36,559 nucleotides of DNA, from IMG/VR virus record IMGVR_UViG_2724679237_000007, positions 1 through 36,559 of that record; one strand, written 5' to 3'. The notes under the pieces were generated by a model. It saw only the letters and a program-made list of their open reading frames with translations. It made no database searches and was not told the origin of the DNA. Both the position numbers and the translations under genes were made by a program. Origin of the DNA: a virus (taxonomy: Duplodnaviria; Heunggongvirae; Uroviricota; Caudoviricetes). Below are positions 1 to 21,367 of the stretch, piece after piece. Every line of letters begins with the position of its first letter. The stretch's first letter is position 1.

Positions 1-1170
1 TTGGCACTGAGTGACACTAAACTGCGTAGTCTCCATGGCAAGCCATATTCCGGCCCGGCGGAAATCACCGACGGTGACGGACTAAGCGCGCGGGTTACCC
101 CTACCGGCACTATCTCTTTTCAGTATCGTTACCGCTGGAACGGTAAGCCAGTGCGCCTTACCGTTGGGCGTTACCCATCAACAACCCTTAAAGAAGCCCG
201 TGTGGTCGTCGGTGAGATGCGCACATTGTACACGAAGGGGGTTAACCCAAAAAATTATTTTGCCCGTAGCGACGGCGAACTGACGTTAAAAGAATGTCTG
301 GAGCAGTGGTGGGACAAGTACGTCACTGACCTGAAACCCAATACGCAGACACTGTACAAATCGGTTGTGTACAACACCATGTACACACAGTTCGAGGACG
401 CGCCTGTAGCCAATATTCCTGTTTCGGCCTGGGTACGTTTTTTTGATAAGCAAGAAAGCCTCAATAAGAAAAAGGCGCGTGTGCTTCTCCTGCAGCTGCG
501 TTCCGTCGTTAACTGGTGTATAAGCCGCCAGCTAATCCCCTCATGTGAGCTGCTTAAACTCAGTGTAAAAAATGTTGGTAAAAAACCGGATGTTGGTAGC
601 CGGGTGCTTACTTACACTGAACTGGCAAAAGTATGGCTGGCGCTGGAAAACAATAAGATTGTTTCATCCAATAAAGTGCTGCACCAACTGCTGTTGCTAT
701 GGGGTGCCCGCTTGTCTGAATTGCGTCTTGCAACTGCCAGCGAGTTCAATATGGATGACCTTATATGGACCACTCCTGGGGACCATTCAAAAATGGGGAA
801 TGTTATTCGCCGGCCGGTATTCGACCAGGTTATGCCCTATGTTGAGAGGCTGCTGAATGTTGGTAACGATGTTCTTTTCCCCGGTCAGGAGATGGATAAA
901 GCGATCGACCGCTCATCGGCGAATCTGTACATGAAAAAGCTTAGGGAGAAGATTGATATACCTGAGTGGCGAACGCACGATTTCCGGCGCTCACTTGTAA
1001 CGAATTTATCTGCGGAGGGAGTAATGCCCCACGTCACCGAAAAGATGCTGGGGCATGAGCTGGGAGGGGTAATGGCGGTGTATAACAAACATGACTGGCT
1101 GCCGGAGCAGAAAGAGGCGTACGAGCTGTATGCTGATAAGATTTTTTGGCATGTCAAACAGCTTGATTAA
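1..1170 (+). CDS. int: Tyrosine recombinase, phage integrase (P4-like family)
   Basis: 389 aa ORF. N-terminus MALSDTKLRS...GDGLSARVTPTG matches the P4-type integrase arm-binding region; C-terminal HDFRRS...VYNKHDW carries His/Arg and Tyr catalytic residues. Begins at window position 1 with TTG, so the true start and att site may lie upstream. Confidence 0.85.
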   Translation: MALSDTKLRSLHGKPYSGPAEITDGDGLSARVTPTGTISFQYRYRWNGKPVRLTVGRYPSTTLKEARVVVGEMRTLYTKGVNPKNYFARSDGELTLKECLEQWWDKYVTDLKPNTQTLYKSVVYNTMYTQFEDAPVANIPVSAWVRFFDKQESLNKKKARVLLLQLRSVVNWCISRQLIPSCELLKLSVKNVGKKPDVGSRVLTYTELAKVWLALENNKIVSSNKVLHQLLLLWGARLSELRLATASEFNMDDLIWTTPGDHSKMGNVIRRPVFDQVMPYVERLLNVGNDVLFPGQEMDKAIDRSSANLYMKKLREKIDIPEWRTHDFRRSLVTNLSAEGVMPHVTEKMLGHELGGVMAVYNKHDWLPEQKEAYELYADKIFWHVKQLD

Positions 1171-1336
1171 CACCTCCAGCGCTAATCCACTTTTCAACTG
1201 CCTGACGGCTGTACCTTGATGGGTGAGTGAGTACCGGCTCCGGAAAGCCGTGTTTCTTACGAAGGTTATACAGTGCGGTTCGTTTTTTCTGAAGTAACTC
1301 AGAAATTTCTCTCTCAGTCATAAAGTCAGTAATCAT
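1154..1336 (-). CDS. AlpA/excisionase-family HTH protein (putative Xis or regulator)
   Basis: 60 aa from the internal ATG (cat at 1334-1336) with an upstream GAGAGG RBS. Sequence MITDFMTEREISELL...LYNLRKKHGFPEPV...VEKWI fits the AlpA/Xis pattern. Start overlaps the helicase stop (ATGA) and the 3' end overlaps int convergently by 17 bp. The rest of the 233 aa track ORF is an alternate frame of the helicase. Confidence 0.6.
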   Translation of the reverse strand: MITDFMTEREISELLQKKRTALYNLRKKHGFPEPVLTHPSRYSRQAVEKWISAGGVNQAV

Positions 1337-2733
1337 AGTATACCTCTCTTTTTCATTGCACCGAGCAGGATGTCCTGCACTGTTCGTTTTGAGTTGCGCC
1401 GTTCCATCACCATGTCGTCCATAGTGTCGGCAGCGATGATGTGGTGAATGAACACCGGGCGGTTGTGTCCGGCCTGGATCTGCCGGGTTGGCCCGATGCG
1501 TTCGATAATTTGTTGGTACTGCTCCAGATCCCACCAGTGCGAGAAAAACACCAGTATGTTGCCGCCGTCCTGCATGTTCAGACCGTGGCCTGCACTGGCA
1601 GGGTGCGCGAACAGCACCGGGATTTTTCCGGTGTTCCAGTCGCGCAGCGTCTGCGGATACTGGCCAAGGTGTCGACCACGCGGGAATGCTTTTAGCAGTC
1701 GTTCGAGGTCGTGCTTCCAGTGGTATGCAACAAGCACCGGCGCGCCAGCAGCTTCGGTCAGTATGCTGTCCAGCGCCTGCAGCTTCGCGTCGTGCAGTTC
1801 TGACCAGTTCCCGGCATCGTCGGTGTACACCGCGCCGCTGGCGATTTGCAGACACTTCGCCGTCTTTGCCGCGGCGTTCGGCGCTTCGATGCCCTCGCCG
1901 TTGAGTTCGAGGAACATTTCTTTTTCCATTTCGCGATACTGCTGGCGCGTCTTCGGTGGCATGTCTACGCGGATCACGTTATGGATTGGCTCCTTGATAT
2001 CGAACCAGTCGGCGGCGTCCAGTGAGATAGTGACGTCGGCCAGCGCCCGCTGTATCTCGTCCTGTGAGTGAGCGAACGGCTCCAGCTTCGTCCAGCTCTG
2101 CCCCGGAAACTGTATCGAGTTGAACCAGCGGGAAGTAAACGCGCCCCAGGTGCGACCCAATCGCTGCCCCTGATCGACAAACCACGCCTGCCCCCACAAA
2201 TCCACCAGGCCGTTTGGCGCTGGCGTGCCGGTGAGATTCACCCAGCGCCGGGCGTACTTATGCGCCACTTTGCCCAGTGCCGCTGCACGCTTGCCACCCC
2301 CGCGCAGCCGGAAGGATTTTAGCCGGGTGCTTTCGTCGGGGATAACGGTACCGAACGGCCAGCGGCCGCCCAGCTCTTCCACCAGCCAGACCAGATTGTC
2401 GTAGTTGATGGTGAACACGCTGGCGTTGCTGTTCGCCAGCGCCGCAGCACGTGCCTTAGCGTTACCGACAATCGGCTGCACCTCGATATTGCGCAGATGC
2501 CCCCACTTTACCGCTTCATCAGGCCATGTGCTGGCAGCCACGCGCAGCGGCGCGAGAACCAGCGCGGGCTGTGTCTCCGCTCCCGCCATGAAGAGGTCTT
2601 CCAGCGTGGTGAGCGTCGCCACGGTTTTACCCATGCCCATGCCCGCCCAGATGTTGCAGCGGTGAATGTCGATTTCGTGGTTGATGATGAGGTCCTGGTA
2701 AGGGCGGGGAATAAAGATTTTAGATGAGGTCAT
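1333..2733 (-). CDS. SNF2/DEAD-like phage helicase
   Basis: 466 aa with Walker A GMGMGKT near the N-terminus and helicase C-terminal region; start overlaps the methyltransferase stop by 14 nt. Confidence 0.8.
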   Translation of the reverse strand: MTSSKIFIPRPYQDLIINHEIDIHRCNIWAGMGMGKTVATLTTLEDLFMAGAETQPALVLAPLRVAASTWPDEAVKWGHLRNIEVQPIVGNAKARAAALANSNASVFTINYDNLVWLVEELGGRWPFGTVIPDESTRLKSFRLRGGGKRAAALGKVAHKYARRWVNLTGTPAPNGLVDLWGQAWFVDQGQRLGRTWGAFTSRWFNSIQFPGQSWTKLEPFAHSQDEIQRALADVTISLDAADWFDIKEPIHNVIRVDMPPKTRQQYREMEKEMFLELNGEGIEAPNAAAKTAKCLQIASGAVYTDDAGNWSELHDAKLQALDSILTEAAGAPVLVAYHWKHDLERLLKAFPRGRHLGQYPQTLRDWNTGKIPVLFAHPASAGHGLNMQDGGNILVFFSHWWDLEQYQQIIERIGPTRQIQAGHNRPVFIHHIIAADTMDDMVMERRNSKRTVQDILLGAMKKRGIL

Positions 2734-3769
2734 ATCCTGCGCATTCCATAAACGAGCGGATGAATGTAGCGGCAGCTGGCGCGACTATCGCGTTGCCGTA
2801 GGCGCGCAGTCGTCCCACTCTGCTGGTAATCCCATGAGCCAGCGGGAATGTGCCGGGTTCAACTGGCCGCCAGCGACCATCCCGGCAGAGGAGCCAGTCA
2901 GCATCATCCCAGCTGCCGCTAATCGTATTGGGCCACAGATTCTCGCTGCGCCGCCGAGAGTCGTTCCCCGTTCGGTATGATTGGCTGCGGCTCCCTCTCC
3001 CCGAACCCGGTTGTTGTCGATCGTCGTCACCGTCGGCCATCCACTCAGGCAGGCATAATCCTGTAAGTTCGGTTGTCGGCCCGCTAAGGTTTCCAGACCG
3101 CGCTTTGTCTCCGGCTGTGGATTGGTGTTGCAGGTTGGCGTGTACCATCCCGCCAGGTGGGCAAAGTCCCTCAGGGAGCTGTGCAAGGGGTTGCCGGATG
3201 GTCGACGATCTCCAGACATTTTCCTCAATGCTATTGAGGCGCTTCCGCCACCACTGTGATCGGTCGCCGCTGGAGTCGGCCACCCAATAAGCTCTGTCTC
3301 GGATATGCGGGGCACCGACGCCCGCAGCCGGAAACGGGACAAGCCCAAAGGCGTAGTCCACTGCTTCCACGTCAGTTTGTACAAGATCGAACCAGGCATT
3401 GACTCCCGCAACCTGTTCGCCAAATACCAGCTCAGGGCGTCGCTCGCTGATGAGGTGGAAGAAGGCTGGCCAAAGGTGCCGCTCGTCAGCAAACCCATTT
3501 CCTTTGCCTGCCGCGCTGAAAGGCTGGCAGGGGCAGGAGCCTGTCCAGACCGGGCGAGCGTCGGGCCATCCTGCCAGACGCAGGGCGTAAGACCAGACGC
3601 CGATCCCGGCGAAGAAATGGCACTGTGTAAAGCCTCGCAAGTCGTCTGGTGCGACATCCTCGATACTCCTCTCGTCAACTTCACCAGGGGCGATATGTCC
3701 CGCGGCAATAAGGTTACGCAGCCATTGCGCTGCGTTCGGGTCTATTTCGTTGTACCAGGCTCCCCGCAC
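2720..3769 (-). CDS. DNA (cytosine-5)-methyltransferase
   Basis: 349 aa with FAGIGV (motif I, FxGxG) and PCQPFSAAG (motif IV, catalytic Cys). No cognate restriction endonuclease is visible nearby. Confidence 0.8.
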
Positions 3770-4050
3770 AATATTCCCTCCATATTTTTGCTATCCAGCA
3801 CCACCACGGTAAAGCCCAGCGCTCGCAGCCGTTCGTGCTCGCGCAGCTGGTCGGCGCGTGCGGGTTTGCCGGGGGCTTTACATTCGACAAAAACGATACG
3901 ACCACCAGGTAGCAGCACGATGCGATCGGGAACTGAACGGCGGCCAGGCGACACGAACTTTAAGGCAACCCCGCCAGCCTTTTTCACCTCGGCGACGAGG
4001 TACTTTTCGATTAGGCTTTCACGTTCGTAGGTCATCACCAGATGCCCCAC
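3742..4050 (-). CDS. VRR-NUC domain nuclease
   Basis: 102 aa; PDRIVLLPGGRIVFVECKAPGK matches the VRR-NUC (PD-(D/E)xK) core; co-directional with helicase and methyltransferase. Confidence 0.75.
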   Translation of the reverse strand: MGHLVMTYERESLIEKYLVAEVKKAGGVALKFVSPGRRSVPDRIVLLPGGRIVFVECKAPGKPARADQLREHERLRALGFTVVVLDSKNMEGILCGEPGTTK

Positions 4051-4123
4051 GATGTTTCAGCGAGTATCTGGCAAATCGCAATTAACACGATGGTGATAAC
4101 GATGACTTTCACAGGAGGTAAGC

Positions 4124-4339
4124 TCATTCTTTAACCGCCTTACGCTTGTCGCGCATGTTCTGCATCAGGCAGAAGTCATTCCGCCGTTCGCTCCAGTCCT
4201 GGTTAAGTTCGTTGCGTGATTCGCGGTTGGCTTTCGCCCAGACCTTCGCCGCCCGGTCGTATTCGCCGGATTGTTCAAGGCGCATAGCTTCCTGCGCGGA
4301 ACGGTAATACAGCGGGTTATCCCGGTATTTAAATGCCAT
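4124..4339 (-). CDS. Small regulator-like protein (ANR-family-like, hypothetical)
   Basis: 71 aa ORF, tightly packed after the upstream gene (stop 4346, start 4339). A decayed paralog lies at 4617..4754. Confidence 0.5.
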   Translation of the reverse strand: MAFKYRDNPLYYRSAQEAMRLEQSGEYDRAAKVWAKANRESRNELNQDWSERRNDFCLMQNMRDKRKAVKE

Positions 4340-4345
4340 AGTGAT

Positions 4346-4570
4346 TTACCTTTTTTCGCTCCAGCCTCGCCAGGCGGAGCCGATGCCGTTCTGACCGGGT
4401 GCATGCCCGATGTGCCAGCCGTGGCAAAACGGGCATCTGTAATTGTGGATATGCCCCTGATGGCCTTTTTTGCGATGAAGTATGCGTATCGCGGCTACGG
4501 CCTCCTCCGCGCTGGCGTAGCGGATTTTGGCTCCGCATTGCTTACGCCGCAGGTTTCGTTTGCTTGACAT
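4346..4570 (-). CDS. Small Cys/His-rich (zinc-binding?) hypothetical protein
   Basis: 74 aa; ATG at 4568-4570 with AAGGGAG RBS; C...CPFCHGWH motif. Confidence 0.5.
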   Translation of the reverse strand: MSSKRNLRRKQCGAKIRYASAEEAVAAIRILHRKKGHQGHIHNYRCPFCHGWHIGHAPGQNGIGSAWRGWSEKR

Positions 4571-4616
4571 GTGATTAACTCCCTTCGGGGCTAAGCGAAC
4601 GGATGCTATCCGGATT

Positions 4617-4754
4617 TAATCGGCGTTGCGTGATTCCCGGTTGGCTTTGGCCCATACCTTTGCCGCCCGGTCATACTCGCCAGCCTGCTCAAGGCCGCAT
4701 AGCCTCCCGCGCAGACCGGAAATACAACGGATTGTCGTGTTTTTCGAATGACAT
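4617..4754 (-). pseudogene. Frameshifted, truncated paralog of the 4124..4339 gene
   Basis: About 75% nucleotide identity to 4205..4340 by eye. Reads MSFEKHDNPLYFRSAREAMRP then stop; a single extra C (aaggccgcatag versus aaggcgcatag) breaks the frame, and the C-terminal third is missing. Confidence 0.55.
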
Positions 4755-4771
4755 AGGGGATTACCTCAAAT

Positions 4772-4806
4772 AAAAAACCCCGCGGTTGCAGGGTTTTTAT
4801 TTTTTA
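4772..4806. terminator. Bidirectional rho-independent terminator
   Basis: AAAAAACCC-cgcggttgca-GGGTTTTTATTTTTT: GC stem flanked by an A-run and a T-run, so it can terminate on either strand; lies 16 bp downstream of the TIR-like gene stop. Confidence 0.65.
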
Positions 4807-4821
4807 AGGAAAAATGATTGA

Positions 4822-5583
4822 TTAAGAGGAAGCGTTAGCTATTTGAGCTTGTGTAAATTCAAAACCTGAATGCTGTAACCGTTGCACCAGTCGAGGAACA
4901 GTTTCTCGTACATGGTCGTTGAAGTTCAGATATAAAATTCCGTTAGCATCAGAAGGTTGTTCTAAATGTTGTTTCTGCAAAATAGCTACGTTACTGCGCC
5001 CTAAGGACGAAAGAAGCATACCCATCTCGAGCACAACATTCTGTCTTGCACGAGGCTGGATTTCAGCTTCACCGGCGCGCTTTGAGTACCCCATATCGTC
5101 AGGTGTGAGAAGCACAATCCCGAATCGGGTAGCTGTTTGCCCCTGACCGATTTCACGTTCCAGCTCTTCAATAATTGTGAGCCCAGTCCCGCCAGTATTC
5201 TGCAAAATGAAATGGTCTGGCAACCCGAGTTTATGGAGTATTAGCTCAAGTTGTTCCTTTGCCGCATGATCATGGCCGTGAACAATGAAAATCTTTTTTG
5301 GAATCTCAGCAGGTTGTTCAACAGATTGAGGTGCCGCTGCGGGTGGCGTTCCTAAATGGGCCATTATTGCAGATTCAACATTGGGGCGTTCTTGAGGGTT
5401 ACCCTGAAGCTGAATAGTACGGGTAGCGTAAAGGTTAACAATTACACCATTCGCTAAACGATAGCAGTCACAAGCCCCACGCTGTTCATGGTCAAAATTG
5501 GTGAACCCGCACTCCCTTAAAAAGTCAGGAAATGATTCTCTTGGGTGTGGATAGGTGATCGGCATTTCAGTTAGTTCCTGCAT
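4822..5583 (-). CDS. TIR-like (Rossmann, nucleotide-binding) domain protein with an uncharacterised N-terminal domain; candidate defense effector
   Basis: 253 aa. C-terminal half KKIFIVHGHDHAAKEQLELILHKLGL...GIVLLTPDDMGY...ARQNVVLEMGMLL matches the prokaryotic TIR-like / SLOG-type pattern (vFIvHGhd...LTPDD). N-terminal ~80 aa has no family I recognise, followed by a Pro/Ala linker. Clearly lower GC than flanking genes. Confidence 0.6.
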   Translation of the reverse strand: MQELTEMPITYPHPRESFPDFLRECGFTNFDHEQRGACDCYRLANGVIVNLYATRTIQLQGNPQERPNVESAIMAHLGTPPAAAPQSVEQPAEIPKKIFIVHGHDHAAKEQLELILHKLGLPDHFILQNTGGTGLTIIEELEREIGQGQTATRFGIVLLTPDDMGYSKRAGEAEIQPRARQNVVLEMGMLLSSLGRSNVAILQKQHLEQPSDANGILYLNFNDHVRETVPRLVQRLQHSGFEFTQAQIANASS

Positions 5584-5647
5584 TAATATTGTTCCTTTAA
5601 TTTACTCGAATTCAGCATATCGACATAGCTCTATAAAGTGAGCTATA

Positions 5648-7711
5648 TCAATCTTTTCTGTAGTGGTACGCCTCGAAGCCGCCAGCGTTCAGCGGGATGT
5701 CGGGCGCCCATTCGGGGTTTGTGGAGAGCAGCGCGGAAAGCGCCGTATCGTTGAAATCGTCGGTGTCCGGCGCTTCGGTGATCACCTCATCGTGTACCGT
5801 CAGCACAATGCTGTAACCGGCATCCTCGATCAGCGGCATGTTCCCGGCCAGAACGTCGCGGGCGGCCGCCTGGGTGACGTTTTCCGCGAGCTTGCCGGAG
5901 TAGGTTTTAAGCCGTTGCCATTTGCGCGAGTAGGAATTAACGCCCCGGTAGGTGATGTCGCCGTCCTCGATCGTCGGTGACGGATAACAGACCGCGCGCC
6001 CGGACGGCAACTGGATGCGCAGCCAGGCACCATCGCGCCGGACTTTCAGATAACCACAACACAGGGTTCTTTTCGGGGTTGCAATGGCGGCGCGAACGGT
6101 GCGCTCAATCTCGTGCCAGAAATCGCAGGTAGCTGGGTGCGCCCGGCGCCACAGGCGCTTTAGCGAGTCACAAGCGATAAATACGCGCTCCGACAGTCCG
6201 TAGGTTACTTTGCGTTTGACCGATTCGTCATACCAGCTTTTCGCCTCGTGGATCACCTCACGGGGGATATTCGGCAGCGCGGCGTTCGCCAGTTCGTTGA
6301 GGTCGAGGCCGTAAACAAGGGCGAAGGTCAGGAATGCCGCGACGCCTCCGCCATATCCTAACCCGAGTTCCATTACTTTGCCGATCTGACGCTGGTATTT
6401 ATCAACATCGTCCGGCGAGATATTGAAGGCACGGGCATAGGCCAGTTTATACAAGTCCGGGCCGGTGCCCTCGTCGTACTCACGGAACGCGTCCAGCTTC
6501 CACTGTTCACCCGCCAGCCACGCCAGCATTCGCCCTTCGATATTTGACAGATCGCTAACCACCAGCTTTTTGCTTTCCGGCGCCATGATGCAGCCGCGTA
6601 ACGCTGAACTGGTCAGTTCCATGATGTTATTGAACAACAGATCGGCACATCCGGCTTTCAGGGCGTCGATACCGAAGTCTATTTGCTCCTGCGGCAGCGT
6701 TGGCCGACTGAGGTTTTGCGGCTGAAACAGCCGGCCCGCCCAGCGCCCTGTTCGTGATGCCCCGCAAAATTGCAGCGTACCGCGCAGGCGCCCGTCGTGG
6801 CTGACGCCTTTTATCAGCGTTTTGTATTTGCTGGTGCTGGTCATACTGGCCTGTAATCGGATCGCCAGCAGTTCTTTGACCGCCGGGGGTAAGTCCGGGT
6901 CGGCAATGCGGCGTTCGAGCGTCGATTTCTGCATGTCCGGCAATATCACGCCGTAGGATTCGACGATGTGTTTTAGCATGGCGTCGCGCTGTGTGGCCGC
7001 CTGGACTTCGCCGCCGGTCATTGCCTGCGTGCGTTTTGCCAGGCGCTTTTGCTCCTGGTCTACCGCTTCGACGGCCGCGTGCGCGAGCTGCACATCCATG
7101 CAGGCGCCACGGTCGTTAATCCGCTGGTCGCGGTGCCAGTGCGCCAGCTCGGCTCCCTGATAGTTCCACTTTGGCAGGCGCTTATGCACTTCGCGCATGG
7201 CCTCGATATCCAGCCCGGCGTATGCAACGAACCGCCGCCACTCTTCCGGGTGCGTTTTGCTGGTGGCCCGGCGCAGTTTGCTGTTTTTCGGTCGAGGCTT
7301 GCAGAACAGCTGGATTAGCGCCGTACCCCCTTTATCCTTCGCTTTGTCCTGCGGAACGCCCAGCACTTCACACAACGCGCCTAATGCGCCGGGGAGTCCG
7401 TGCGCCAGCGCCTGCACCATAGTATCGCGCCAGCGGGTGATATCGGGTGCCAGTTCCGGCATTGCATGGCGCAGCACCGTGCGGTCGAAATGTGAATTGT
7501 GCGCCCATACTTCTACCTCCGGTTTTTTGAGCGCGAGACGCAACTCCAGAGGTATTTTTTGGGTTTCGGTTAAGTCCCACACTTGTACGGGGGCGTCGTC
7601 GAGCGCCCAGGCGAACAGCATAACCTCGGCACCCTCTGAATACGCATGGGTCCCGTTTTTTATCGGCACTTCGGAGAAAGTTTCGAGGTCGAGATAAAGG
7701 CGTTTAGACAT
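5648..7711 (-). CDS. Family A DNA polymerase with 3'-5' exonuclease (T7 gp5-like)
   Basis: YLDLETFS (Exo I), [14 protein letters not shown] (motif A), [16 protein letters not shown] (motif B), VLTVHDEV (motif C). ATG at 7709-7711 has a GAGGTGG RBS; the track ORF starts at an upstream GTG (7726). Confidence 0.85.
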
Positions 7712-8201
7712 GGGGCCACCTCGCACCGGAAATAATCATACCCACCGCACGTCGTGATATTCCGTACCTACGACCAAGTTCAGTTTGTGAGACTGAATCG
7801 CCCAGCGTTTTTATCTCCCGAGCGATGGCCTCTGTAATTTTTGCCATTCCATTCTTTTCACCTCTATTATCGGGAAAAGTCAGGCGACCATTGCGAGCGA
7901 CTCGCTTCATATTTTCCTGACGGTCAACCCATTCAAGATTGCCGACGGTATTGTTTCTCTTGTCGCCATCGAGATGGTCAACTTCTGGTTTATTTTTGGC
8001 CGTCGGAAGAAAAGCAGTTGCGACTAGTCGATGTACAAATATGTTGCGAGAGATGCCGTTATCGCATAGCTTCGCATGCAGATACCCGTCTCTGTGTTTT
8101 GACGGTTTGAGAATGTGGTGGTGGATATTTCTAACTCTTCCCAAATTGCTGACCTCGTAACGGTCTTCAAATCCGGGTGCAGGTTTCCAAATTTCGGGCA
8201 T
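7704..8201 (-). CDS. HNH homing-type endonuclease (NUMOD4/HNH_3-like)
   Basis: [15 protein letters not shown]-terminal motif and [14 protein letters not shown] core. Start chosen at ATG 8199-8201 (GAGGA RBS, 6 nt spacing) rather than the track start at 8246. Confidence 0.8.
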
Positions 8202-8392
8202 AAATAGTCCTCGCGGGTGCTTTGCGAAAAGGGATGCTCTTTGCAAAACACCCGGCGCGTGGCCGGGTGGGTGGGTGTTTACGCTGTGGCTTCTTCGTCA
8301 GAAGGGAGGCCGATCATCTCGTTGAGCGTTTCGCGGCGTATCGCGGGCGGCAGCGGGCGGGCATAGCACCGTGAGGGACGCGCTTTCCGGGA

Positions 8393-8425
8393 ATAAAAAA
8401 GCCCGGCAGTGGAGTCTGACCGGGC
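8393..8425 (-). terminator. Rho-independent terminator (minus strand)
   Basis: Minus strand reads GCCCGGTCAG-actcca-CTGCCGGGC followed by TTTTTTATTC; about 9 bp stem. Confidence 0.6.
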
Positions 8426-8451
8426 AACAACTACACACAGCAATGGATTAT

Positions 8452-8547
8452 TCAGGGGGATGCGGTTAAAGCCGCGAGGTATTCCTCGAAACTTAAGGCT
8501 TCTTCGCCTTCATCCAGGCTATCGAAGTACGCTTCGTAATCATCCAT
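8452..8547 (-). CDS. Candidate 31-aa acidic micro-protein
   Basis: MDDYEAYFDSLDEGEEALSFEEYLAALTASP; GAGGAA RBS 5 nt upstream of the ATG; the terminator at 8393..8425 follows. Below the 60 aa track cutoff. Speculative. Confidence 0.3.
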   Translation of the reverse strand: MDDYEAYFDSLDEGEEALSFEEYLAALTASP

Positions 8548-8605
8548 CGTCTTTCCTCATTCAGTTCACTTTGGCGGTGCGATGGCCGGTGCTGATCCCC
8601 GGTAT

Positions 8606-8671
8606 GGCGTTCTGCGGGATTCGAACCCGCGTTTTCCGTCGGATCGTCCTGGGTCGCTAGACGAAGAACGC
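8606..8671 (-). ncRNA. tRNA-Glu-like element lacking a canonical anticodon arm (degenerate tRNA or tRNA-like RNA)
   Basis: Minus strand: GCGTTCT-TCGTCTAGCGACCCAGGAC-GATCCGACGGAAAAC-GCGGGTTCGAATCCCGC-AGAACGC-C. Perfect T-arm (GCGGG/TTCGAAT/CCCGC), 7-bp acceptor pairing, and a D-arm near-identical to E. coli tRNA-Glu (TTCGTCTAGAGGCCCAGGAC), but only ~15 nt where the 17-nt anticodon stem-loop plus variable loop should be. Confidence 0.45.
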
Positions 8672-9070
8672 CCGGCTACATGCATTTAGCCGCGCATCAG
8701 CCTGCGCATTCACCGCACCCCAAAGGGAACTTCGCCACACTTTCGCAGTGGCCGCGCTCATGCCCTTGAGTCGTCTGTCGCTCAGTCGCCGCTAATAACC
8801 GGTGCTCGTCTGGCTTGCGAACTGCTTTACCGGCACACCATCTTCATCGTTAACCCTCACCAGCGTGCGCTGCGGTTCGTACCCGCATCTGGCTACCCTC
8901 GTCGGGTATTCGGGGCAGCATTACAATTGCTGCACTGCCTTTCGGCTGCGGTCTGACCGCTTTACTTGTGCATGGTGGTTTCCTCCTTTGGTTGATTTTT
9001 TACTGACCCGTATTGCCGGCATCCTGCCTCGCCACGGTCCCGACGCATGGTTTTAAGTCGCGCCGTTCGA

Positions 9071-9110
9071 CTTGAATTCTAAATTGATTTTTGAATTCAA
9101 AAATGAATTT
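9071..9110. promoter_or_regulatory. Operator-like palindromic repeats (TTGAATTC / GAATTCAA), putative leftward promoter region
   Basis: cTTGAATTCtaaattgatttTTGAATTCAAaaatGAATTt; same half-site family as the cI-cro intergenic palindrome. Confidence 0.4.
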
Positions 9111-9154
9111 ATAGAAGCGGTAACACCTTGTCAATCCAAAAGTGAATTATTTTT

Positions 9155-9185
9155 AGAAAAAGAAAAGCCACTCAAAGGGTGGCCT
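9155..9185 (-). terminator. Rho-independent terminator downstream of the repressor gene
   Basis: Minus strand GCCAC-cctttga-GTGGC followed by TTTTCTTTTTCT. Confidence 0.55.
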
Positions 9186-9205
9186 TGTGATAAACGTGGC
9201 GGGTG

Positions 9206-9883
9206 CTACTCGGGCATCCAGAGCGACGATTTAGCGATCCCGGCAACGTACTGGATATGTACCACCTGGTCTTTTTGCAGGCGAACAGGTAAGTGATTTT
9301 CGTTGACAGGCATCAAGTGATAAGCCCCGTCGCGTTCGAACAAAAAAACCTTCACCATCACTTCCCCCTGCGCAGTGACCACCAGCACTTCATCTCCGGG
9401 GGTATAGCTATGACCAGGTTCGATGATGACGTACTCACCTTCTTTAATCCGGGGCATCATCGAGTCCCCCACGCATTTTAACGCGTAGGCGTTCTCGTCT
9501 TGCGAAGGCCAGTGTATATACCCGTCCCCGCTTCCTACCGGGTATTGCATTTCGCTCCAGTAACCGCCATGCCCAAGCTGGGTATTTCCCAAAACAGGAA
9601 CTCCTCTAAACCGTAAAGTATCGGGTTTCCCCGGGACGGAATGTTGTTGCTCCCCAGTCTTCGGCATGCTGGTTTCCATCAAATCGGGGACGCTTACCCT
9701 AAAAAAATCAGCTACCTGCTTTATGAGCGGGTACTTCGGTTCTTTGTTTTCCCCTGAAAGCAGCCTGTGCATGGTGGGCTGCGGAATGCGTATCTGCTTA
9801 GCCAGTTCGGTCACGTTTGGTATGCCGCGTTTCGCCATTAAGTAATTGATATTTGAAATAAGTTTTTCAGTAGTAAAGCCCAT
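9206..9883 (-). CDS. cI: CI-like repressor (HTH + S24 LexA-like peptidase domain)
   Basis: 225 aa; N-terminal HTH (NVTELAKQIRIPQPTMHRLL) and C-terminal S24 peptidase motifs (GDSMMP Ser, downstream Lys); divergent from the Cro-like gene. Confidence 0.85.
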   Translation of the reverse strand: MGFTTEKLISNINYLMAKRGIPNVTELAKQIRIPQPTMHRLLSGENKEPKYPLIKQVADFFRVSVPDLMETSMPKTGEQQHSVPGKPDTLRFRGVPVLGNTQLGHGGYWSEMQYPVGSGDGYIHWPSQDENAYALKCVGDSMMPRIKEGEYVIIEPGHSYTPGDEVLVVTAQGEVMVKVFLFERDGAYHLMPVNENHLPVRLQKDQVVHIQYVAGIAKSSLWMPE

Positions 9884-9912
9884 AGCGATACCTGTGGATT
9901 CGGGTTATTCAA

Positions 9913-9988
9913 GACTGAATATTCTATACTGAATATATTACGCTGGTATTGCATTCATTATTGAATTATTATTGAATTCAATAATGAA
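9913..9988. promoter_or_regulatory. Operator region of the cI/cro switch
   Basis: Direct repeat ACTGAATAT x2 (9913-9940) and a long inverted repeat ATTCATTATTGAATT / AATTCAATAATGAAT (9953-9988) in the 130-bp divergent intergenic region. Confidence 0.5.
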
Positions 9989-10013
9989 TTTACAACCTTT
10001 GAGGATATGACAT

Positions 10014-10214
10014 ATGCGAACGCTGACCCCAAAAGAAATCATCGCGTCGCTGAACGACACAGGGCTTACGCAGGTAGACATTAAGAACCGGACCGGTATC
10101 AGCCAGGCTTCAATTAGCCGTATCGCGTCAGGTAAAAATAGGGACCCGCGTTTTTCGGTTGTTCGTGCGCTGGAAGCCTTGTATCAGGAAGTGACCGAAA
10201 CGAAAAAGGCGTAA
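10014..10214 (+). CDS. cro: Cro-like HTH transcriptional regulator
   Basis: 66 aa; first gene of the rightward operon opposite cI; HTH-like TGISQASISRIASGK; GAGGA RBS. Confidence 0.65.
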   Translation: MRTLTPKEIIASLNDTGLTQVDIKNRTGISQASISRIASGKNRDPRFSVVRALEALYQEVTETKKA

Positions 10215-10217
10215 CCC

Positions 10218-12521
10218 ATGGAAATACGCTATTCAACGGGGCAGTACGCCAGAGACGCCAGGCCTAAGCCGGGTATCTGTAAGAGCTTTGGGTCGTTCTA
10301 CTGGACGGTGCGTGGCCTGCGTCGGGCCATTGGCATCGAGCCAGAAGATACGCCGAACCAGATGCGTATCAAAAAGTCCCGTCTGCCCTATATCTGGCAC
10401 TCAATGCGGGATGTTGCAAACGGACGTAATGCGCTCAATGCTGGCGATCGCGATGCGCTGTTCCTCGATATGGACGGCTGCGACGAACCCACATGGCAGG
10501 CGCTGCGCAATGCGCTAACTTGCTTTTCCTGCTTCACCTACTCAACCCCCAGCCATCTGCACCCTGCCGTAAACGGCGAGCAGCGCTGGCGTATCTGCTT
10601 TGAGCTTGATCGCCCTGTTACGCCCGAAGAATACAAACGCCTTGGCCCGTCGCTGGAAAACTGGCTGATAGACTGTATCAGCCTGCTGGACGACTATGCC
10701 GTTAAGTGGGATCAGTCTGTCTATAACCCCGACCACATGGTTTACGGGCCTGACGAAAGCGCAGTGTTCGAGTGTTTCGAGGGGTCACCTGTCACCGTGG
10801 ATATTCTGCTGGCCAGCACAACGGAAATTACCTCACCTGAAAAAGCGCCGTCCGTTGACCACGATGATTTGTCGCGTGCTGTCGATCTGAACGGCATCAG
10901 TCACCAGACCTTCGACGACCTGCGCGAGGTGATGTGGCATCCGGCTGTGCTGGCTGACGCCCGTCCGAAAAGTGAGAAGCATGACGCATGGGCATCGATG
11001 GGGAATCGTCTGGCATGGTTCAAAGGTACCGACTGGGAAGATGCCGCGCGGCAACTATGGATCGACTGGTCAACCGCAGGCGGCGGCAGCGAAGAAGATA
11101 TCGCGGTAGCTGAAACGCGCTGGGATGAGAATAAGCTGAAAGCAGACCGTACCGGTTACCAGGCTATTTTTGCCCATGCGCAGAAATCTGGTGTCGCTAA
11201 CCCGGCGGTTGACCGTCTGCGTGGTTCTGTTGCCAGCGTGGACGATTTCGACGATTTGACAAATACCGACATAGCCGAGCCTGCGCCGTTACCGGCTTTT
11301 CGTAGAGATAATAAGGGAGACATCGAAGCGATCCTTGATAATGTTGTGCTGGCTCTGATGCGTCCGGATTTTACGGGTGTAGCCATACGCTACGACATAT
11401 TCAGGGATGCGCTTATGCTGGCACCGGCGGAAACTGATGGCTGGCGTGCTTTCGGGGATGAGGATTATAGCGAGCTTCGGATACTGCTTTCTCGTCGCAG
11501 TTTTAAAGAAGTTAGTAAAGAGTTGATGCGTGATGCGGTGTTTACGGTAGCAAAACGGCAGCCGTTCGACTCGGCGACAACCTGGCTGAACGGGCTGGAG
11601 TGGGACGGCGTGCCGCGCATCGAATCTTTCTACCATACGCACTTTGGTACCGCTGATACGACGTACACCCGGGCGGTGTCCCTGTACATGTGGACGGCGC
11701 TGGCGGGCAGGGTGCTGGAGTCCGGCGTTAAAGCTGATATGGTGCCGATCCTCGTCGGCGCTCAGGGACTGCGTAAATCAGCTGGGATTGCAGCTCTTTC
11801 GCCAGATCCGGAATTCTTTGCCGATATTTCGTTTGCTGATAAAGATGACGACCTCGCGCGCAAGATGCGAGGCTGTTTAGTCGCGGAGATAAGTGAGTTG
11901 CGTGGCCTGAACACAAAAGATCTTGAGTCAATAAAGGCATGGGTAACGCGAACCCACGATAAATGGGTTCCGAAATTTAAGGAGTTTACGACCATCTTTG
12001 CTCGTCGTGGTATTCCTTTGGGGTCCTCTAACGAAGATGAATTCCTCGCGGATAAGACCGGTAACCGCCGCTGGTTGCCTGTAGACGTCATCAACATGGT
12101 TGATACAGATGCTATTAAGCGCGATTTACCGCTGCTGTGGGCGGAGGCCCGCGAGACGTTTAAGCGCCTCGGCGGCATCCAGTTCCGCGATGCTGAGCGC
12201 CTCGGCGCAACTGTCCACGAGCAGTACACCATTAAGGACGCCTGGCTCGAAACGGTCGAGAAATGGCTCGATACCCCTGACCTGATGACTAACGACATTC
12301 CGCGAAATTGCGAATTTTTACGCGCAAGCGACGTTTTACGGGAGGCGATCGGCCTTGACCCGCGGAATATCGGAAAGCGTGAAGAAATGCGAATTAGCAA
12401 TGTTTTGCAAAATTGCGGTTATAAGCGCGAAACACGACGTGTTGAAGGCAAGTTAATGAAGGTTTGGATAGCAGCGTTACCACCTGTTACCACCTGTAAG
12501 GGCAAGGTGGTAACAAATTAA
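10218..12521 (+). CDS. DNA primase (primase-polymerase-like N-terminus with VirE/P4-type P-loop C-terminal domain)
   Basis: 767 aa; C-terminal ILVGAQGLRKSAG (Walker A) and VirE-like region; lies between cro and the iteron array. Confidence 0.7.
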   Translation: MEIRYSTGQYARDARPKPGICKSFGSFYWTVRGLRRAIGIEPEDTPNQMRIKKSRLPYIWHSMRDVANGRNALNAGDRDALFLDMDGCDEPTWQALRNALTCFSCFTYSTPSHLHPAVNGEQRWRICFELDRPVTPEEYKRLGPSLENWLIDCISLLDDYAVKWDQSVYNPDHMVYGPDESAVFECFEGSPVTVDILLASTTEITSPEKAPSVDHDDLSRAVDLNGISHQTFDDLREVMWHPAVLADARPKSEKHDAWASMGNRLAWFKGTDWEDAARQLWIDWSTAGGGSEEDIAVAETRWDENKLKADRTGYQAIFAHAQKSGVANPAVDRLRGSVASVDDFDDLTNTDIAEPAPLPAFRRDNKGDIEAILDNVVLALMRPDFTGVAIRYDIFRDALMLAPAETDGWRAFGDEDYSELRILLSRRSFKEVSKELMRDAVFTVAKRQPFDSATTWLNGLEWDGVPRIESFYHTHFGTADTTYTRAVSLYMWTALAGRVLESGVKADMVPILVGAQGLRKSAGIAALSPDPEFFADISFADKDDDLARKMRGCLVAEISELRGLNTKDLESIKAWVTRTHDKWVPKFKEFTTIFARRGIPLGSSNEDEFLADKTGNRRWLPVDVINMVDTDAIKRDLPLLWAEARETFKRLGGIQFRDAERLGATVHEQYTIKDAWLETVEKWLDTPDLMTNDIPRNCEFLRASDVLREAIGLDPRNIGKREEMRISNVLQNCGYKRETRRVEGKLMKVWIAALPPVTTCKGKVVTN

Positions 12522-12643
12522 CTGTATGAAATTTAAGGGTTGTTACCACCGTTACCACCGTTACCACCTATTACTATATATGTGCGCGTAATATATATAG
12601 GTCAGTTTAGAACTTAGTATAAACAGGTGGTTACGGTGGTAAC
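12476..12643. repeat. Iteron array (GTTACCACC / GGTGGTAAC) flanking an AT-rich core; putative replication origin
   Basis: GTTACCACC at 12476, 12486, 12542, 12551, 12560; inverted GGTGGTAAC at 12506 and 12635 plus variant GGTGGTTAC at 12626; AT-rich tattactatatatgtgcgcgtaatatatatag (12569-12600); A9 run at 12648-12656. Overlaps the last codons of the primase gene. Confidence 0.55.
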
Positions 12644-12679
12644 AGGTAAAAAAAAACTCCCAAAAACAAGGTAAATAGC

Positions 12680-12907
12680 ATGAAAATTTCAGGATTAAAA
12701 AACCATATCGACGGAAATAACGAAGTTGCCTGTCCGCGCTGTGCGAGTAATCAGGTTTTTATTCGCAATGTTGCCATGCGAGCGCATGAAAATGGCGCGA
12801 CGGTAGTAATTAACCTCGGTTGCTCTGTCTGTGATGACAACTTCCAGCTTGATTTATCCGACGGGCCAAACACCAGTGTTAGGGGGCACCTGGAGTTCAA
12901 CGAGTAA
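12680..12907 (+). CDS. Small zinc-ribbon-like hypothetical protein
   Basis: 75 aa with CPRC...CSVC paired Cys motifs. Confidence 0.45.
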   Translation: MKISGLKNHIDGNNEVACPRCASNQVFIRNVAMRAHENGATVVINLGCSVCDDNFQLDLSDGPNTSVRGHLEFNE

Positions 12908-12956
12908 AGCGCAGTAGAAAAATTTTTTTGTAGCAAAACGTAGAGGGCGGTTAATT

Positions 12957-13379
12957 ATGCGCAGAGATATGCAACTTGTTCTGGAGCGGTGGGGGCGGTG
13001 GGCTGCGAGCGAGGAATACTGTTCAATGGTTGACTGGCCCTCGATGTCGGTGACACCTCAACGTGTACCGTTCAGCGGAAAGCCCGGCTGCACCGACGAG
13101 GACGGCGCGGCAATTGACACCTGCATCGCGCATATGAGTATGGTTTGTCCGCATGACGACCTGCTGATCCTTGGCTTACGTTTCATAGGCGGTTTATCAA
13201 CGCGTTCAATCGCCGAGGCAATGCAGTGCAGCCACCTTAGTGTAAGAACGTCCCTGAGGGCATCTGAGGCGTTTTTATCGGGGGCTCTGACCCTGCAGGG
13301 GATCAGACTGGATATGGACTACGAAGTTGCATTACCTGAAAACGTTGTGTGCGCACAAAAACATGTGTTATGGTTGTAG
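12957..13379 (+). CDS. Late-gene antiterminator (Q-like)
   Basis: 140 aa starting MRRDMQLVLERWGRWAA, resembling the conserved N-terminus of one Q antiterminator family; sits directly upstream of lysis and virion genes, followed by a terminator. Confidence 0.55.
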   Translation: MRRDMQLVLERWGRWAASEEYCSMVDWPSMSVTPQRVPFSGKPGCTDEDGAAIDTCIAHMSMVCPHDDLLILGLRFIGGLSTRSIAEAMQCSHLSVRTSLRASEAFLSGALTLQGIRLDMDYEVALPENVVCAQKHVLWL

Positions 13380-13406
13380 CGTCTGGAATTGTATTCCGAC
13401 TTCTGA

Positions 13407-13440
13407 AAGGCTCCACTAACCCCGGAGCTTTTTTCTTTTC
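13407..13440 (+). terminator. Rho-independent terminator (candidate tR'-like)
   Basis: aaGGCTCC-actaacccc-GGAGCTTTTTTCTTTT immediately after the Q-like gene. Confidence 0.55.
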
Positions 13441-13773
13441 GCCTTCCTGGGGAAAAGTTAATAAAACAGGGCTTTCGCTGCGAAAAAACGCTATGCAATT
13501 TGCACCCTGTTTTATGCACGATTTATTCACTCGTTTTTGTCCGTTTCGGACCACTTAACCCGCGTAAATACGTCATTCGCTGCAATCCGGCGGCGAGTGC
13601 CGATCGCGTGGTTCTTAATGTACATTATGTTAAATAAGGCCATTTTTTAACAAATTATCACCGTAGTCTACGGTTCGTCCGCAGGTTTGGCCATTGCCGG
13701 GTAGTGCAATATTTCCACTCACATTTTTCACATAACGGCCCGGCGTTCGCGTCTGCTGGCCGGGGATATTTAT

Positions 13774-14148
13774 ATGCCTAATTCACCGCCAACGCTGGCG
13801 TTAATCCTTGAAATGTACCGCCAGCACAAGACCCCGTTCGACCTGTTTCTGCTGGTGCTGGCGGGTGTGTTCGTCCGCATTTTTTACTGGGGCGGTAAAT
13901 TGCGCGAAGCGTGTGGCGATGTGCTCATCGGCACCACCATCATGATTTTCGTTGCAGCGCGGGTGCCAAATATCGTGCTGAATCTGCCGGAAATTGGCGC
14001 AGTGACGGTCAATCACAACGAACTGGCATTCGTCATCGGGATGCTGGGGTACAAAGGCTTTAAAGAAGTGGCGTTCTGGGTGCTGAAAAAACGGTTCGGT
14101 ATCGACGTTCAGGCGCTCAGGCAGAAAAAACAGGAGAGCAATCAATGA
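13774..14148 (+). CDS. Holin (putative)
   Basis: 124 aa with hydrophobic transmembrane segments and a charged C-terminus; immediately precedes and overlaps the endolysin start. Confidence 0.6.
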   Translation: MPNSPPTLALILEMYRQHKTPFDLFLLVLAGVFVRIFYWGGKLREACGDVLIGTTIMIFVAARVPNIVLNLPEIGAVTVNHNELAFVIGMLGYKGFKEVAFWVLKKRFGIDVQALRQKKQESNQ

Positions 14149-14531
14149 CGTTTAAATTTTCGGCACGCAGTGAAAAAAATCTGGTCGGCGTACACCCTGA
14201 ATTAGTGAAAGTGATGCGTCGCGCGCTGGAGCTGTCGACCGTGGATTTTGGTATTACGGAAGGGTTGCGTATGGTTGAGCGTCAGAAGCAACTGGTGGCG
14301 GAAGGCAAATCGCAAACGATGAATTCGCGACACCTGACCGGGCACGCCGTGGATGTTTTTGCTTATCCGACGCCAGCAGGTAGCTGGGAGTGGACGTATT
14401 ACCAGCAGATCGCCAACGTCGTGAAACAAGTTAGCCGGGAGCTGCATATCCCCGTAGAGTGGGGTGGGGACTGGAAAACGCTGAAAGACGGGCCGCATTT
14501 TCAGTTGCTGTACGCGCAATATCCAGCATAG
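14145..14531 (+). CDS. Endolysin, peptidase M15 family (L-alanyl-D-glutamate peptidase type)
   Basis: 128 aa; SRHLTGHAVDV...DGPHFQL zinc-ligand pattern of M15 peptidases. Confidence 0.8.
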   Translation: MTFKFSARSEKNLVGVHPELVKVMRRALELSTVDFGITEGLRMVERQKQLVAEGKSQTMNSRHLTGHAVDVFAYPTPAGSWEWTYYQQIANVVKQVSRELHIPVEWGGDWKTLKDGPHFQLLYAQYPA

Positions 14532-14543
14532 GGAGGCCTGGTC

Positions 14544-15086
14544 ATGGCTAAGAGCCTGAAAGCAAAGCATGAGATGTTTTGCCGGGAGTTTCTGGTCGAT
14601 CTGAATGCTACGCAGGCTGCCGTCCGCGTCGGGTACGCCGTAAAGCGTGCGCACGTAACCAGCGCTGAACTGATGGCTAATCCTGGTATCCAGCAGCGCA
14701 TCAATGAACTCAAAGAGCAGCGCAACGAGCGCACCGACATCAACGTCGATTATGTTCTGCGTCGCCTGGCGGAAATCGATCAGATGGATGTTGCCGATAT
14801 TCTCGCTGACGGCGGCGGGCTGAAGCCAATTTGCGACTGGCCGAAAGTGTGGCGCACGTCGCTGTGCGGGCTGGATATCGAGTCTGCGACCGTCAATCAC
14901 GACGAAACTACCACTGAGTACATTCTGAAAAAGATCAAGTGGCCGGACAAAGTGAAGAACCTGGCGCTGTTGGGCAAGCACGTTAACGTCAACGCCTTTA
15001 AAGAAGTGCATGAACATAACGTCAATGTGACGTTGGCCGATCGTATGGCAAAAGCCCGCAGGCGTGCGGCGGGAGGTGGCGATTGA
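14544..15086 (+). CDS. terS: Terminase small subunit
   Basis: 180 aa; N-terminal KHEMFCREFLVDLNATQAAVRVGY typical of Terminase_2-type small subunits; overlaps the TerL start. Confidence 0.75.
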   Translation: MAKSLKAKHEMFCREFLVDLNATQAAVRVGYAVKRAHVTSAELMANPGIQQRINELKEQRNERTDINVDYVLRRLAEIDQMDVADILADGGGLKPICDWPKVWRTSLCGLDIESATVNHDETTTEYILKKIKWPDKVKNLALLGKHVNVNAFKEVHEHNVNVTLADRMAKARRRAAGGGD

Positions 15087-16591: not shown

Positions 16592-16631
16592 CGCGCTGCG
16601 ACCATTTCATTACTCAATCAGGAGACCTTCC

Positions 16632-16838
16632 ATGTGTGTTGGTTCAAAACCTTCCGCGCCCGCTGCGCCTGAAATCCAGGCCGCGCCGCAGGAACAGGAT
16701 CAGTCCGTTATCGATGCCCGCGACGAAGAGACGCGCCGCCGCCGTGCTGCTGCCGGGCGAAGCTCCACGCTATTAACCGGCTCGCAGGGCGACACATCCA
16801 CAGCAAAGACCAGCGGTAAAACTCTGCTTGGTCAGTGA
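16632..16838 (+). CDS. Hypothetical small protein
   Basis: 68 aa from the internal ATG at 16632 with AGGAGA RBS; low complexity (Ala/Pro-rich); the upstream part of the track ORF overlaps TerL. Confidence 0.35.
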   Translation: MCVGSKPSAPAAPEIQAAPQEQDQSVIDARDEETRRRRAAAGRSSTLLTGSQGDTSTAKTSGKTLLGQ

Positions 16839-16849
16839 GGCGATGACCA

Positions 16850-18517: not shown

Positions 18518-18816
18518 CAGATTCGGATGACGAAGATGATTCGCGGCTTGCCGGGCAAGAACAGCGCCACCGTGAGCGAGAGCAGCGCGATACAGATGAT
18601 ATCCGGCAGGTGATGAGCACTGACGCCGGGCGGCGCGTTATCTGGTGGCTGCTGGAGCGCGGAAAGGTTTTTTCCACTACGTTCCACGCCGACCCGCACA
18701 TTGCAGCATTTAACGAGGGGCAGCGAAATCTGGCTCTGGCGATGTTCAGCCGTGTGATGGCGGCTAGTCCTGATAATTATTTACTTATGGCTGCAGAGGC
18801 CAGCAAAGAGGAGTAG
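18514..18816 (+). CDS. Hypothetical acidic protein (possible scaffold-associated)
   Basis: 100 aa, acidic N-terminus (DSDDEDD); translationally coupled between portal and scaffold. Confidence 0.45.
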   Translation: MTDSDDEDDSRLAGQEQRHREREQRDTDDIRQVMSTDAGRRVIWWLLERGKVFSTTFHADPHIAAFNEGQRNLALAMFSRVMAASPDNYLLMAAEASKEE

Positions 18817-19523: not shown

Positions 19524-19534
19524 GGAAATAACCA

Positions 19535-20524: not shown

Positions 20525-20544
20525 ATCATAACCGGAGAAATAAC

Positions 20545-20985: not shown

Positions 20986-20998
20986 GGAGTAGAGAAGA

Positions 20999-21319: not shown

Positions 21320-21327
21320 ATCTGAAC

Positions 21328-21351: not shown

Positions 21352-21367
21352 AGCTGGAGCGAATTTT

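Follow-up and report, generated by a model that had tools for sequence, protein, structure and literature searches.

Single-protein TIR defences are established in bacteria. SpbK, encoded on the mobile element ICEBs1 of Bacillus subtilis, is a single-protein TIR NADase that the SPbeta portal protein switches on (PMC11984713). Single TIR proteins of E. coli described in 2024, with which the present family was compared by description only, have been shown by experiment to act against phages, provided that the TIR active site is intact, and are reported to be triggered by portal and tail-fibre proteins (PMC11350192). Among such defences, protein triggers are common. TIR domains of the PF10137 type are oligomerization-dependent NADases, as exemplified by the filaments of SfTIR-STING, by PycTIR and by the amoeba TirC (preprint 10.64898/2026.04.30.722052). 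A further 145 candidate systems, designated PDC, were predicted through 'guilt by embedding' (Payne et al., bioRxiv 10.1101/2024.01.29.577857). Here, we analyse a gene encoding a 253-residue protein of the PDC-S35 family in a stretch of 36,559 nucleotides from a tailed phage (IMG/VR record IMGVR_UViG_2724679237_000007, positions 1 to 36,559), referred to below as the window. The protein consists of two domains joined through a disordered linker: an N-terminal domain with a TBP-like fold and a C-terminal TIR domain of the Cap12/PycTIR type (Table 1). It is probably a single-protein abortive-infection or superinfection-exclusion factor that was acquired horizontally by a temperate podovirus resembling BPP-1 and APSE. 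A sequence-only reading of the window had proposed a solo sensor-plus-TIR defence candidate at this position, and the results below bear out the core of that proposal while revising several of its details.

The protein matches the PADLOC PDC-S35 model PDLC05003 with an E value of 4.6e-108 (residues 10–253 on profile positions 3–245 of 245), four further PDC-S35 models at E = 1e-42 to 1e-56, and PHROG 16442, a family of unknown function, at E = 4.7e-103. It shares with PDC-S35 the full-length match, the solo gene and the two-domain architecture; there is no structural difference, although the present gene is prophage-borne and not embedded in a defence system. The family is consequently not undescribed: PADLOC already lists it as a candidate, and RefSeq names the orthologues 'TIR domain-containing protein'. 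In the literature search the name PDC-S35 occurred in no paper, the supplements of the PDC preprint contained no match for PDC-S35, S35 or TIR, and a survey of viral NAD+/ADP-ribose functions (PMC9503650) did not describe the combination of this N-terminal domain with a TIR domain. The open reading frame (ORF) starts with ATG behind a Shine–Dalgarno sequence (AAGGA), and the three motifs by which it was originally recognized (KKIFIVHGHD, LELILHKLGL and LLTPDDMGY) are all present in its product. A homology search returned 2692 homologues, of which 34 diverse members were aligned (alignment A1). Comparison with orthologues gave dN/dS ratios of 0.02–0.05 for the TIR domain and 0.05–0.24 for the N-terminal domain, which evolves about 5–10 times faster; these low values indicate strong purifying selection and thus a functional gene. 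The gene is compositionally foreign to the phage, with a GC content of 46.1% overall and 38.2% at third codon positions (GC3), compared with 59.4 and 70.4% for the neighbouring DNA polymerase gene, 59.8 and 73.4% for the helicase gene and a GC3 of 62–67% for the small downstream genes. Only 1.3% of 762 bp segments within positions 1..32600, the phage part of the window, are equally AT-rich. The visible AT-richness relative to the polymerase and the downstream regulators noted earlier is thereby borne out by the GC comparison.

The C-terminal domain is a TIR domain of the Cap12/PycTIR type with a conserved glutamate and is extraordinarily constrained. Residues 97–222 cover model positions 1–118 of 119 of Pfam PF10137 ('CAP12/Pycsar effector protein, TIR domain', STIR clan). 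The score of 108.6 bits exceeds the cut-off of 24.7 (E = 2.6e-31), and the same model is matched by all 34 aligned homologues. A profile built from these homologues retrieved three structures from the PDB, two of Cap12 TIR-STING (7un8 and 9lmq) and one of PycTIR (8jsj). The predicted structure has the flavodoxin-like TIR fold, and TIR domains head the list of fold matches. The earlier description of the domain as 'TIR-like / SLOG' thus holds for TIR and fails for SLOG: a Pfam scan at E ≤ 1 yielded PF10137 alone, and no SLOG family or fold was matched. Approximately 60 positions of the domain are invariant in alignment A1, across Gammaproteobacteria, Alphaproteobacteria and one metagenome-assembled genome of Vicinamibacterales. 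The putative catalytic glutamate predicted from the sequence could be located at Glu186 in the motif QNVVLEMG, which aligns with the glutamate of RDNVVFEFG in Cap12 (7un8) and is invariant in 34 of 34 homologues; its counterpart is catalytic in SfTIR-STING (preprint 10.64898/2026.04.30.722052). By analogy with SfTIR-STING, PycTIR and TirC, the domain would be expected to hydrolyse NAD+ upon oligomerization.

The N-terminal domain had been left without a family in the sequence-only reading. It can be assigned: it adopts the β-α-β4-α arrangement of the TBP-like fold, in the form found in the N-terminal domain of RNase HIII and in RnlA. In structure it comes closest to RnlA and to the domain with which RNase H3 binds its substrate. 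Evidence from sequence profiles agrees weakly, with Aquifex RNase HIII at E = 0.1, LsoA at 0.56 and RNase H3 chains from the PDB at E = 0.1–0.26; similarly, Pfam matches within the family are all weak (RnlA_toxin in ten of 34 members and DUF3378 in one of 34). A match of a mixed N-domain profile to LeuRS (E = 0.004) falls in a helical region and was taken to be spurious. In RNase H3 the exposed face of the sheet binds the RNA/DNA hybrid through Glu27, His28, Arg32, Tyr43 and Gly52 (PMC4132731), and in RnlA the first TBP domain is required for RNA binding (PMC8266594). Three of the RNase H3 residues, Arg32, Tyr43 and Gly52, align with near-invariant positions of the present family (Arg/Lys42, an aromatic residue at 52 and Gly61). 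The residues of this face are conserved from Enterobacterales to Myxococcota, and also between N-domains attached to TIR domains and those attached to deaminases. Such wide conservation suggests that the ligand may be a conserved molecule and not a specific phage protein, which is the weakest step of the argument. The domain differs from the N-terminal domain of RNase HIII (DUF3378) and from TBP1/TBP2 of RnlA and LsoA in being fused to a TIR domain and in having a net charge near zero. The linker that follows varies in both length and sequence across alignment A1.

As a separable module, the N-terminal domain also precedes other effectors, and at least one of these comes from a defence family that has been validated. 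Searching 1.84 billion representative proteins with the N-domain profile gave 909 matches at E ≤ 1e-3; among the best 150, 34 carry a TIR domain, many are short fragments at contig ends, and the others have C-terminal parts that differ from TIR. These include P0176, in which the domain precedes a multi-pass membrane protein, proteins with a small domain of approximately 70 residues, and tandem copies of the domain itself. P0227, a metagenomic protein of 1234 residues (E = 1.4e-12), combines repeated TBP-like domains with a nuclease of the RNase HII fold and a DinG-like helicase; the helicase part of P0227 matches the PADLOC models for type IV CRISPR-associated DinG. In P0226 the domain is attached to a dCTP deaminase (PADLOC dCTPase, E = 7e-173). 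Among the best 120 dCTP deaminase homologues, 105 (P0355, P0363, P0378 and 102 others) bear an N-domain homologous to that of the TIR protein (E = 1e-12 to 1e-18); the homologues of about 500 residues lack it. The set that carries the domain includes Pseudomonas proteins named 'anti-phage dCTP deaminase' by NCBI, and the three members that were scanned, P0363, P0226 and P0355, pass the NCBIfam equivalog NF041025 with 481–488 bits against a cut-off of 400. As this model starts only after residue ∼112, the N-domain of about 75 residues lies outside the curated family. The TIR-linked and deaminase-linked domains share the motif QF(R/K)..G..LNW(Y/F)..TGTIxFQG. The anti-phage dCTP deaminases thus have the same order of TBP-like domain, linker and effector as the present protein, whereas their effector is a kinase-like and cytidine deaminase module that depletes dCTP and not NAD+. 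A search of the PDB gave no solved structure of a dCTP deaminase with this N-domain, and no description of the link between the TIR and dCTP deaminase N-domains was found in the searchable literature.

Among characterized systems, SpbK offers a close parallel in architecture: it has ∼260 residues, and a linker connects its recognition domain at the N-terminus with a C-terminal TIR domain whose catalytic residue is E192 (E186 in the present protein). Both proteins are carried by mobile elements, and SpbK follows an abortive-infection logic (PMC11984713). The two differ in that the present TIR domain is of the PF10137 type, the comparison with SpbK being one of description and not of sequence, and in that the present N-domain has a TBP-like fold whose sheet face is the same across phyla, pointing to a conserved ligand and not to a specific phage structural protein. 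The PADLOC scan returned no model named for SpbK (whether the library contains one was not checked). Cap12 of CBASS and PycTIR of Pycsar possess the related TIR domain, whereas the present protein lacks a STING, SAVED or cyclic-nucleotide-binding domain and has no cyclase gene nearby. Membership of either system was rejected: with the NCBIfam Cap12 model the score is 34.5 bits (cut-off 450), the part outside the TIR domain is TBP-like, and the gene is flanked by genes for a polymerase and for small regulators.

If the gene is a defence factor, the protein would be inactive at rest. During infection, the N-terminal domain would use the conserved β-sheet face (Arg/Lys42, the aromatic residue 52, Gln58, Gln60 and Gly61) to bind a trigger. 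This trigger would be a conserved molecule, for example some form of nucleic acid or a host component that infection alters, and not a rapidly evolving phage protein. Binding would gather or order the TIR domains, and oligomerization would form the active site, as in other PF10137 TIRs; NAD+ would then be hydrolysed and the cell would arrest or die before the invading phage completes its cycle. A narrower version, in which the N-domain senses nucleic acid (RNA/DNA hybrids or an intermediate of replication or transcription) and copies of the protein along the polymer template TIR filaments that deplete NAD+, is possible but doubtful.

Several observations weigh against the defence reading or its nucleic-acid form. 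Two of the five hybrid contacts of RNase H3 (Glu27 and His28) have no conserved counterpart in the N-domain, and a basic charge, sought as a sign of nucleic-acid binding, was not found: the net charge is about 0, with a mean of −0.6, and is atypical for a nucleic-acid binder. The AlphaFold2 model of the TIR part is of medium confidence (pLDDT 55–85). The PDC systems are predictions that were explicitly not yet assayed (bioRxiv 10.1101/2024.01.29.577857), our literature search found no experiment on the PDC-S35 family, and in the survey of E. coli TIR proteins by Wang et al. (2024; Nat Commun 15:7384), which used 111 phages, 20 of 32 candidates assayed were inactive; none of the names TIR-V, TIR-VI or TIR-IX occurred in any other paper in our search. 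Finally, a promoter scan of the 64 nt spacer in front of the gene and of the polymerase gene's 3′ end detected no σ70 consensus site. Since the gene lies on the same strand behind the polymerase without such a promoter, it may be expressed together with the lytic replication genes and not in the lysogen.

The last point bears on the alternative that the protein is a lytic factor working for the phage itself, which might consume NAD+ or NAD-derived immune signals and so blunt the host defences that rely on them, or might reprogramme host metabolism for the phage in another way. Its position, 64 nt downstream of the polymerase gene, suits such a role and is retained in several enterobacterial relatives: the gene occupies the same slot in prophages of 45 of 5,426 complete E. 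coli genomes and in prophages of Serratia (71% identity) and Providencia (65% identity). However, a tblastn search found the gene in only four of 50,697 phage records, and the family resides mostly in chromosomes, integron cassettes and restriction–modification or defence islands, not in phages. In YeP4, BPP-1 and APSE-3 the polymerase gene is followed by small genes or a VRR-NUC gene, and the TIR gene is absent; its absence there and its rarity in phage records mark it as accessory. The proposal that the gene is cargo and not a conserved core replication gene is upheld by the same absence. A relative in Salmonella carries a 55%-identical copy in a different slot. In Klebsiella sp. Ap-873 (L018:5512-6953), a prophage remnant retains the intact gene, whose product is 94% identical, together with the terminator region; all that survives of the polymerase gene is its final ∼425 bp. 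Survival of the intact gene in this decayed prophage argues that the host, and not the phage, benefits. Together with the occurrence of the N-domain in a host defence enzyme family, these observations make the pro-phage alternative unlikely. The Ap-873 locus was also considered as an independent, P4-satellite context and rejected, as it is similar to positions 6073 to 4625 of the window, which identifies it as a remnant of the same type of prophage. As a separate observation, the remnant adjoins a P4-like element with Ogr/Delta, Psu, an AAA_15/AAA_21 ATPase pair and an integrase.

More distant homologues (50–58% identity) are always solo. In Vibrio parahaemolyticus (L024:6891-7890) the gene forms a single-ORF cassette of a chromosomal integron and is bracketed by two attC-like repeats, the locus containing 21 such repeats of ∼120 nt (TAACAAA...GCGTTA) at intervals of 480–1250 bp. 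One homologue overlaps the start of a restriction–modification pair (an Eco57I-like methylase and XhoI), and another lies in an island with DUF4062, reverse transcriptase and ParDE modules, DUF4062 having recently been described as a TIR-like NADase defence. Others are found in an integrative element of Vibrio cholerae and beside insertion sequence (IS) elements. Across approximately ten contexts (prophage, integron, restriction–modification-adjacent, island and IS), no conserved neighbouring gene was found: this is a single-gene system with no obligatory partner. The full-length PDC-S35 match and the solo homologues in an integron cassette, beside a restriction–modification pair and in defence islands are what sustain the candidacy of the protein as a solo sensor-plus-TIR defence. 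An unusual location was seen in Cognatishimia sp. MH4019 (L017:7280-8768), where a PDC-S35 homologue and a 2OG-Fe(II) oxygenase gene sit inside a ribosomal-protein operon between the L16 and L29 genes; the same operon has a GIY-YIG (LEM-3-like) ORF between the L30 and L15 genes.

These contexts also bear on two further explanations. According to the first, the TIR domain generates a signal as in Thoeris, with a messenger of the cyclic ADP-ribose type activating an effector encoded elsewhere. TIR domains can generate signals, and the literature indicates that the catalytic glutamate is compatible with either chemistry; nevertheless, the want of a conserved neighbour, the existence of a copy as a lone integron cassette and the affiliation of the domain with the PF10137 effector type and not with ThsB (PF08937) render this very unlikely. 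Membership of Thoeris proper (ThsB with ThsA) was rejected on the same lack of a constant neighbour and on the absence of any ThsB or ThsA match in the PADLOC scan. According to the second, the protein is the toxin of an addiction or stabilization module, which would serve to keep the prophage in its lineage and not to act on other phages. A predicted, potentially lethal NADase on a mobile element, retained in a prophage remnant, would fit this description, yet no antitoxin-like gene is conserved next to it, the neighbours differ in every context and the integron cassette again stands alone, so that we regard it as highly improbable. A replication-accessory role, combining a nucleic-acid-binding N-domain with a nucleotide-processing Rossmann-like domain, is scarcely credible, given that the gene is missing from YeP4, BPP-1 and APSE despite their having the same replication module, takes a different slot in the Salmonella relative, is foreign in composition and is widespread outside phages.

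The flanks of the gene were analysed by direct folding (Table 1), as the promoter-scan tool missed the minus-strand terminator, probably because the A and U tracts extend the stem. On the minus strand the terminator folds with a ΔG of −17.7 kcal/mol (z = −4.5; none of 200 shuffled sequences folds as well), and on the plus strand the values are weaker (ΔG −12.3, z = −1.4). The 'strong bidirectional terminator' postulated from the sequence is therefore strong in the direction of the gene, and its bidirectionality is only plausible. Terminator-like hairpins of unrelated sequence follow the gene in the orthologous loci of E. coli, Klebsiella, Serratia and Providencia. On the other side, the inverted repeat reported upstream lies exactly at 5625..5646 and extends to a 13 bp stem (5619–5652; ΔG −19.7, z = −4.0) that overlaps the stop codon of the polymerase gene. 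This hairpin was discarded as a conserved regulatory element: in the E. coli locus it carries three mismatches, and the loci of Serratia and Providencia lack it. As regards the view of the gene as an autonomously expressed moron, its foreign composition and the terminator behind it are in accord with a moron; autonomous expression is unsupported, as no consensus promoter was found in the spacer and the upstream hairpin is not conserved. The gene may be expressed by read-through of the polymerase transcript, ending at the terminator, or from an unrecognized promoter.

Table 1. Positions of the two-domain TIR gene, its parts and its flanking features in the window
Feature	Position	Strand	Basis or remark
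CDS, 253-residue two-domain protein (PADLOC PDC-S35 family; PHROG 16442)	4822..5583	-	ORF list and profile matches
N-terminal TBP-like domain, residues ∼8–78, β-α-β4-α, presumed sensor/ligand-binding module	5350..5562	-	
Pro/Ala-rich low-complexity linker, residues 79–95	5299..5349	-	pLDDT <50 at residues 80–93
C-terminal TIR domain, Cap12/PycTIR type, residues 96–253	4825..5298	-	
Glu186 codon, putative catalytic glutamate (motif QNVVLEMG)	5026..5028	-	Alignment with Cap12
Intrinsic terminator: A-tract, 11 bp stem (4773–4798), loop AACC, U-tract	4768..4806	-	Folding
Spacer, 64 nt, polymerase stop to TIR start; contains AAGGA and most of the 13 bp hairpin	5584..5647	-	Sequence and fold
Family-A DNA polymerase, directly upstream, left insertion boundary	5648..7726	-	Pfam DNA_pol_A
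74-residue Cys-rich small protein (PHROG 14788), right insertion boundary	4346..4570	-	PHROG match
Frameshifted ANR-family pseudogene, right part of the inserted block	4600..4754	-	MSFEKHDNPLYFRSAREA... then frame change

In the Salmonella relative (L012) the polymerase gene is followed directly by the homologue of the gene for the 74-residue protein, from which positions 4571–5647 emerge as an extra block in the window, comprising the spacer, the TIR gene, the terminator and the frameshifted ANR pseudogene. A second, intact ANR copy is located at 4124–4339 on the minus strand (ANR_neg_reg, E = 2.5e-20), and the counterpart of the pseudogene in E. coli IAI1 is likewise annotated as frameshifted.

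The window represents a temperate phage with genes for an integrase, an SNF2 helicase, a C5 methyltransferase, a family-A DNA polymerase, a cI-like S24 repressor, Cro and a VapE primase, together with podovirus-like structural genes. In its terminase DNA it is similar to SPN1S and Tyrion, which are epsilon15-like. The polymerase shares 85% amino-acid identity with those of three E. coli phages (among them 606R2), 73% with that of Yersinia phage YeP4, 68% with that of Bordetella phage BPP-1 and 64% with that of APSE, and no single-subunit phage RNA polymerase was matched among the large ORFs scanned. With respect to replication, the phage is therefore BPP-1/APSE/YeP4-like and not T7-like as the sequence-only reading had it, in keeping with its integrase, cI/cro and VapE genes. 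Scans of the window with Rfam (at gathering thresholds) and for tRNAs found nothing.

Other features of the window were noted. An ORF resembling homing endonucleases (NUMOD4 and HNH_3; 7704–8246, minus strand) shares 23 nt with the start of the DNA polymerase gene, and its AT-richness (GC content 47.5%) suggests a second insertion. Between this HNH gene and the cI repressor gene, about 1 kb (8250–9200) contains no ORF of more than 85 residues and no Rfam or tRNA match; the genes for a DUF2800 nuclease and a DUF2815 single-stranded-DNA-binding protein, which lie between polymerase and cI in relatives, are absent in the window. At 32728–36559 there is a tailspike-like ORF (912 residues, GC content 41%) with a conserved N-terminus, followed by a minus-strand ORF of ∼30% GC that has no PHROG match and runs past the end of the window. 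Within the gene for the C5 cytosine methyltransferase (2720–3769, minus strand) lies a 307-residue ORF in an alternative frame of the same strand (2785..3708), probably a by-product of high GC content.

The family itself was already catalogued, as PDC-S35 and in RefSeq; the contribution of the present analysis is the assignment of its N-terminal domain to the RNase HIII/RnlA class of TBP-like domains and the link between this domain and most anti-phage dCTP deaminases. The latest systematic survey of TIR proteins deliberately excluded standalone ones; with its cleanly separable presumed sensor and effector, the compact 253-residue protein would be a convenient model for the switching of one-protein TIR defences. 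The Klebsiella locus shows a case in which a prophage gene has been kept by the host after the prophage decayed. The trigger of the dCTP deaminases was given as unknown in a 2026 review. If the N-domain is the part that binds the trigger, a single binding result could explain the activation of several defence families, that of the dCTP deaminases included, and if it proves to be a nucleic-acid sensor, TIR, dCTP deaminase and membrane effectors and RNases of the RnlA type would share one common trigger.

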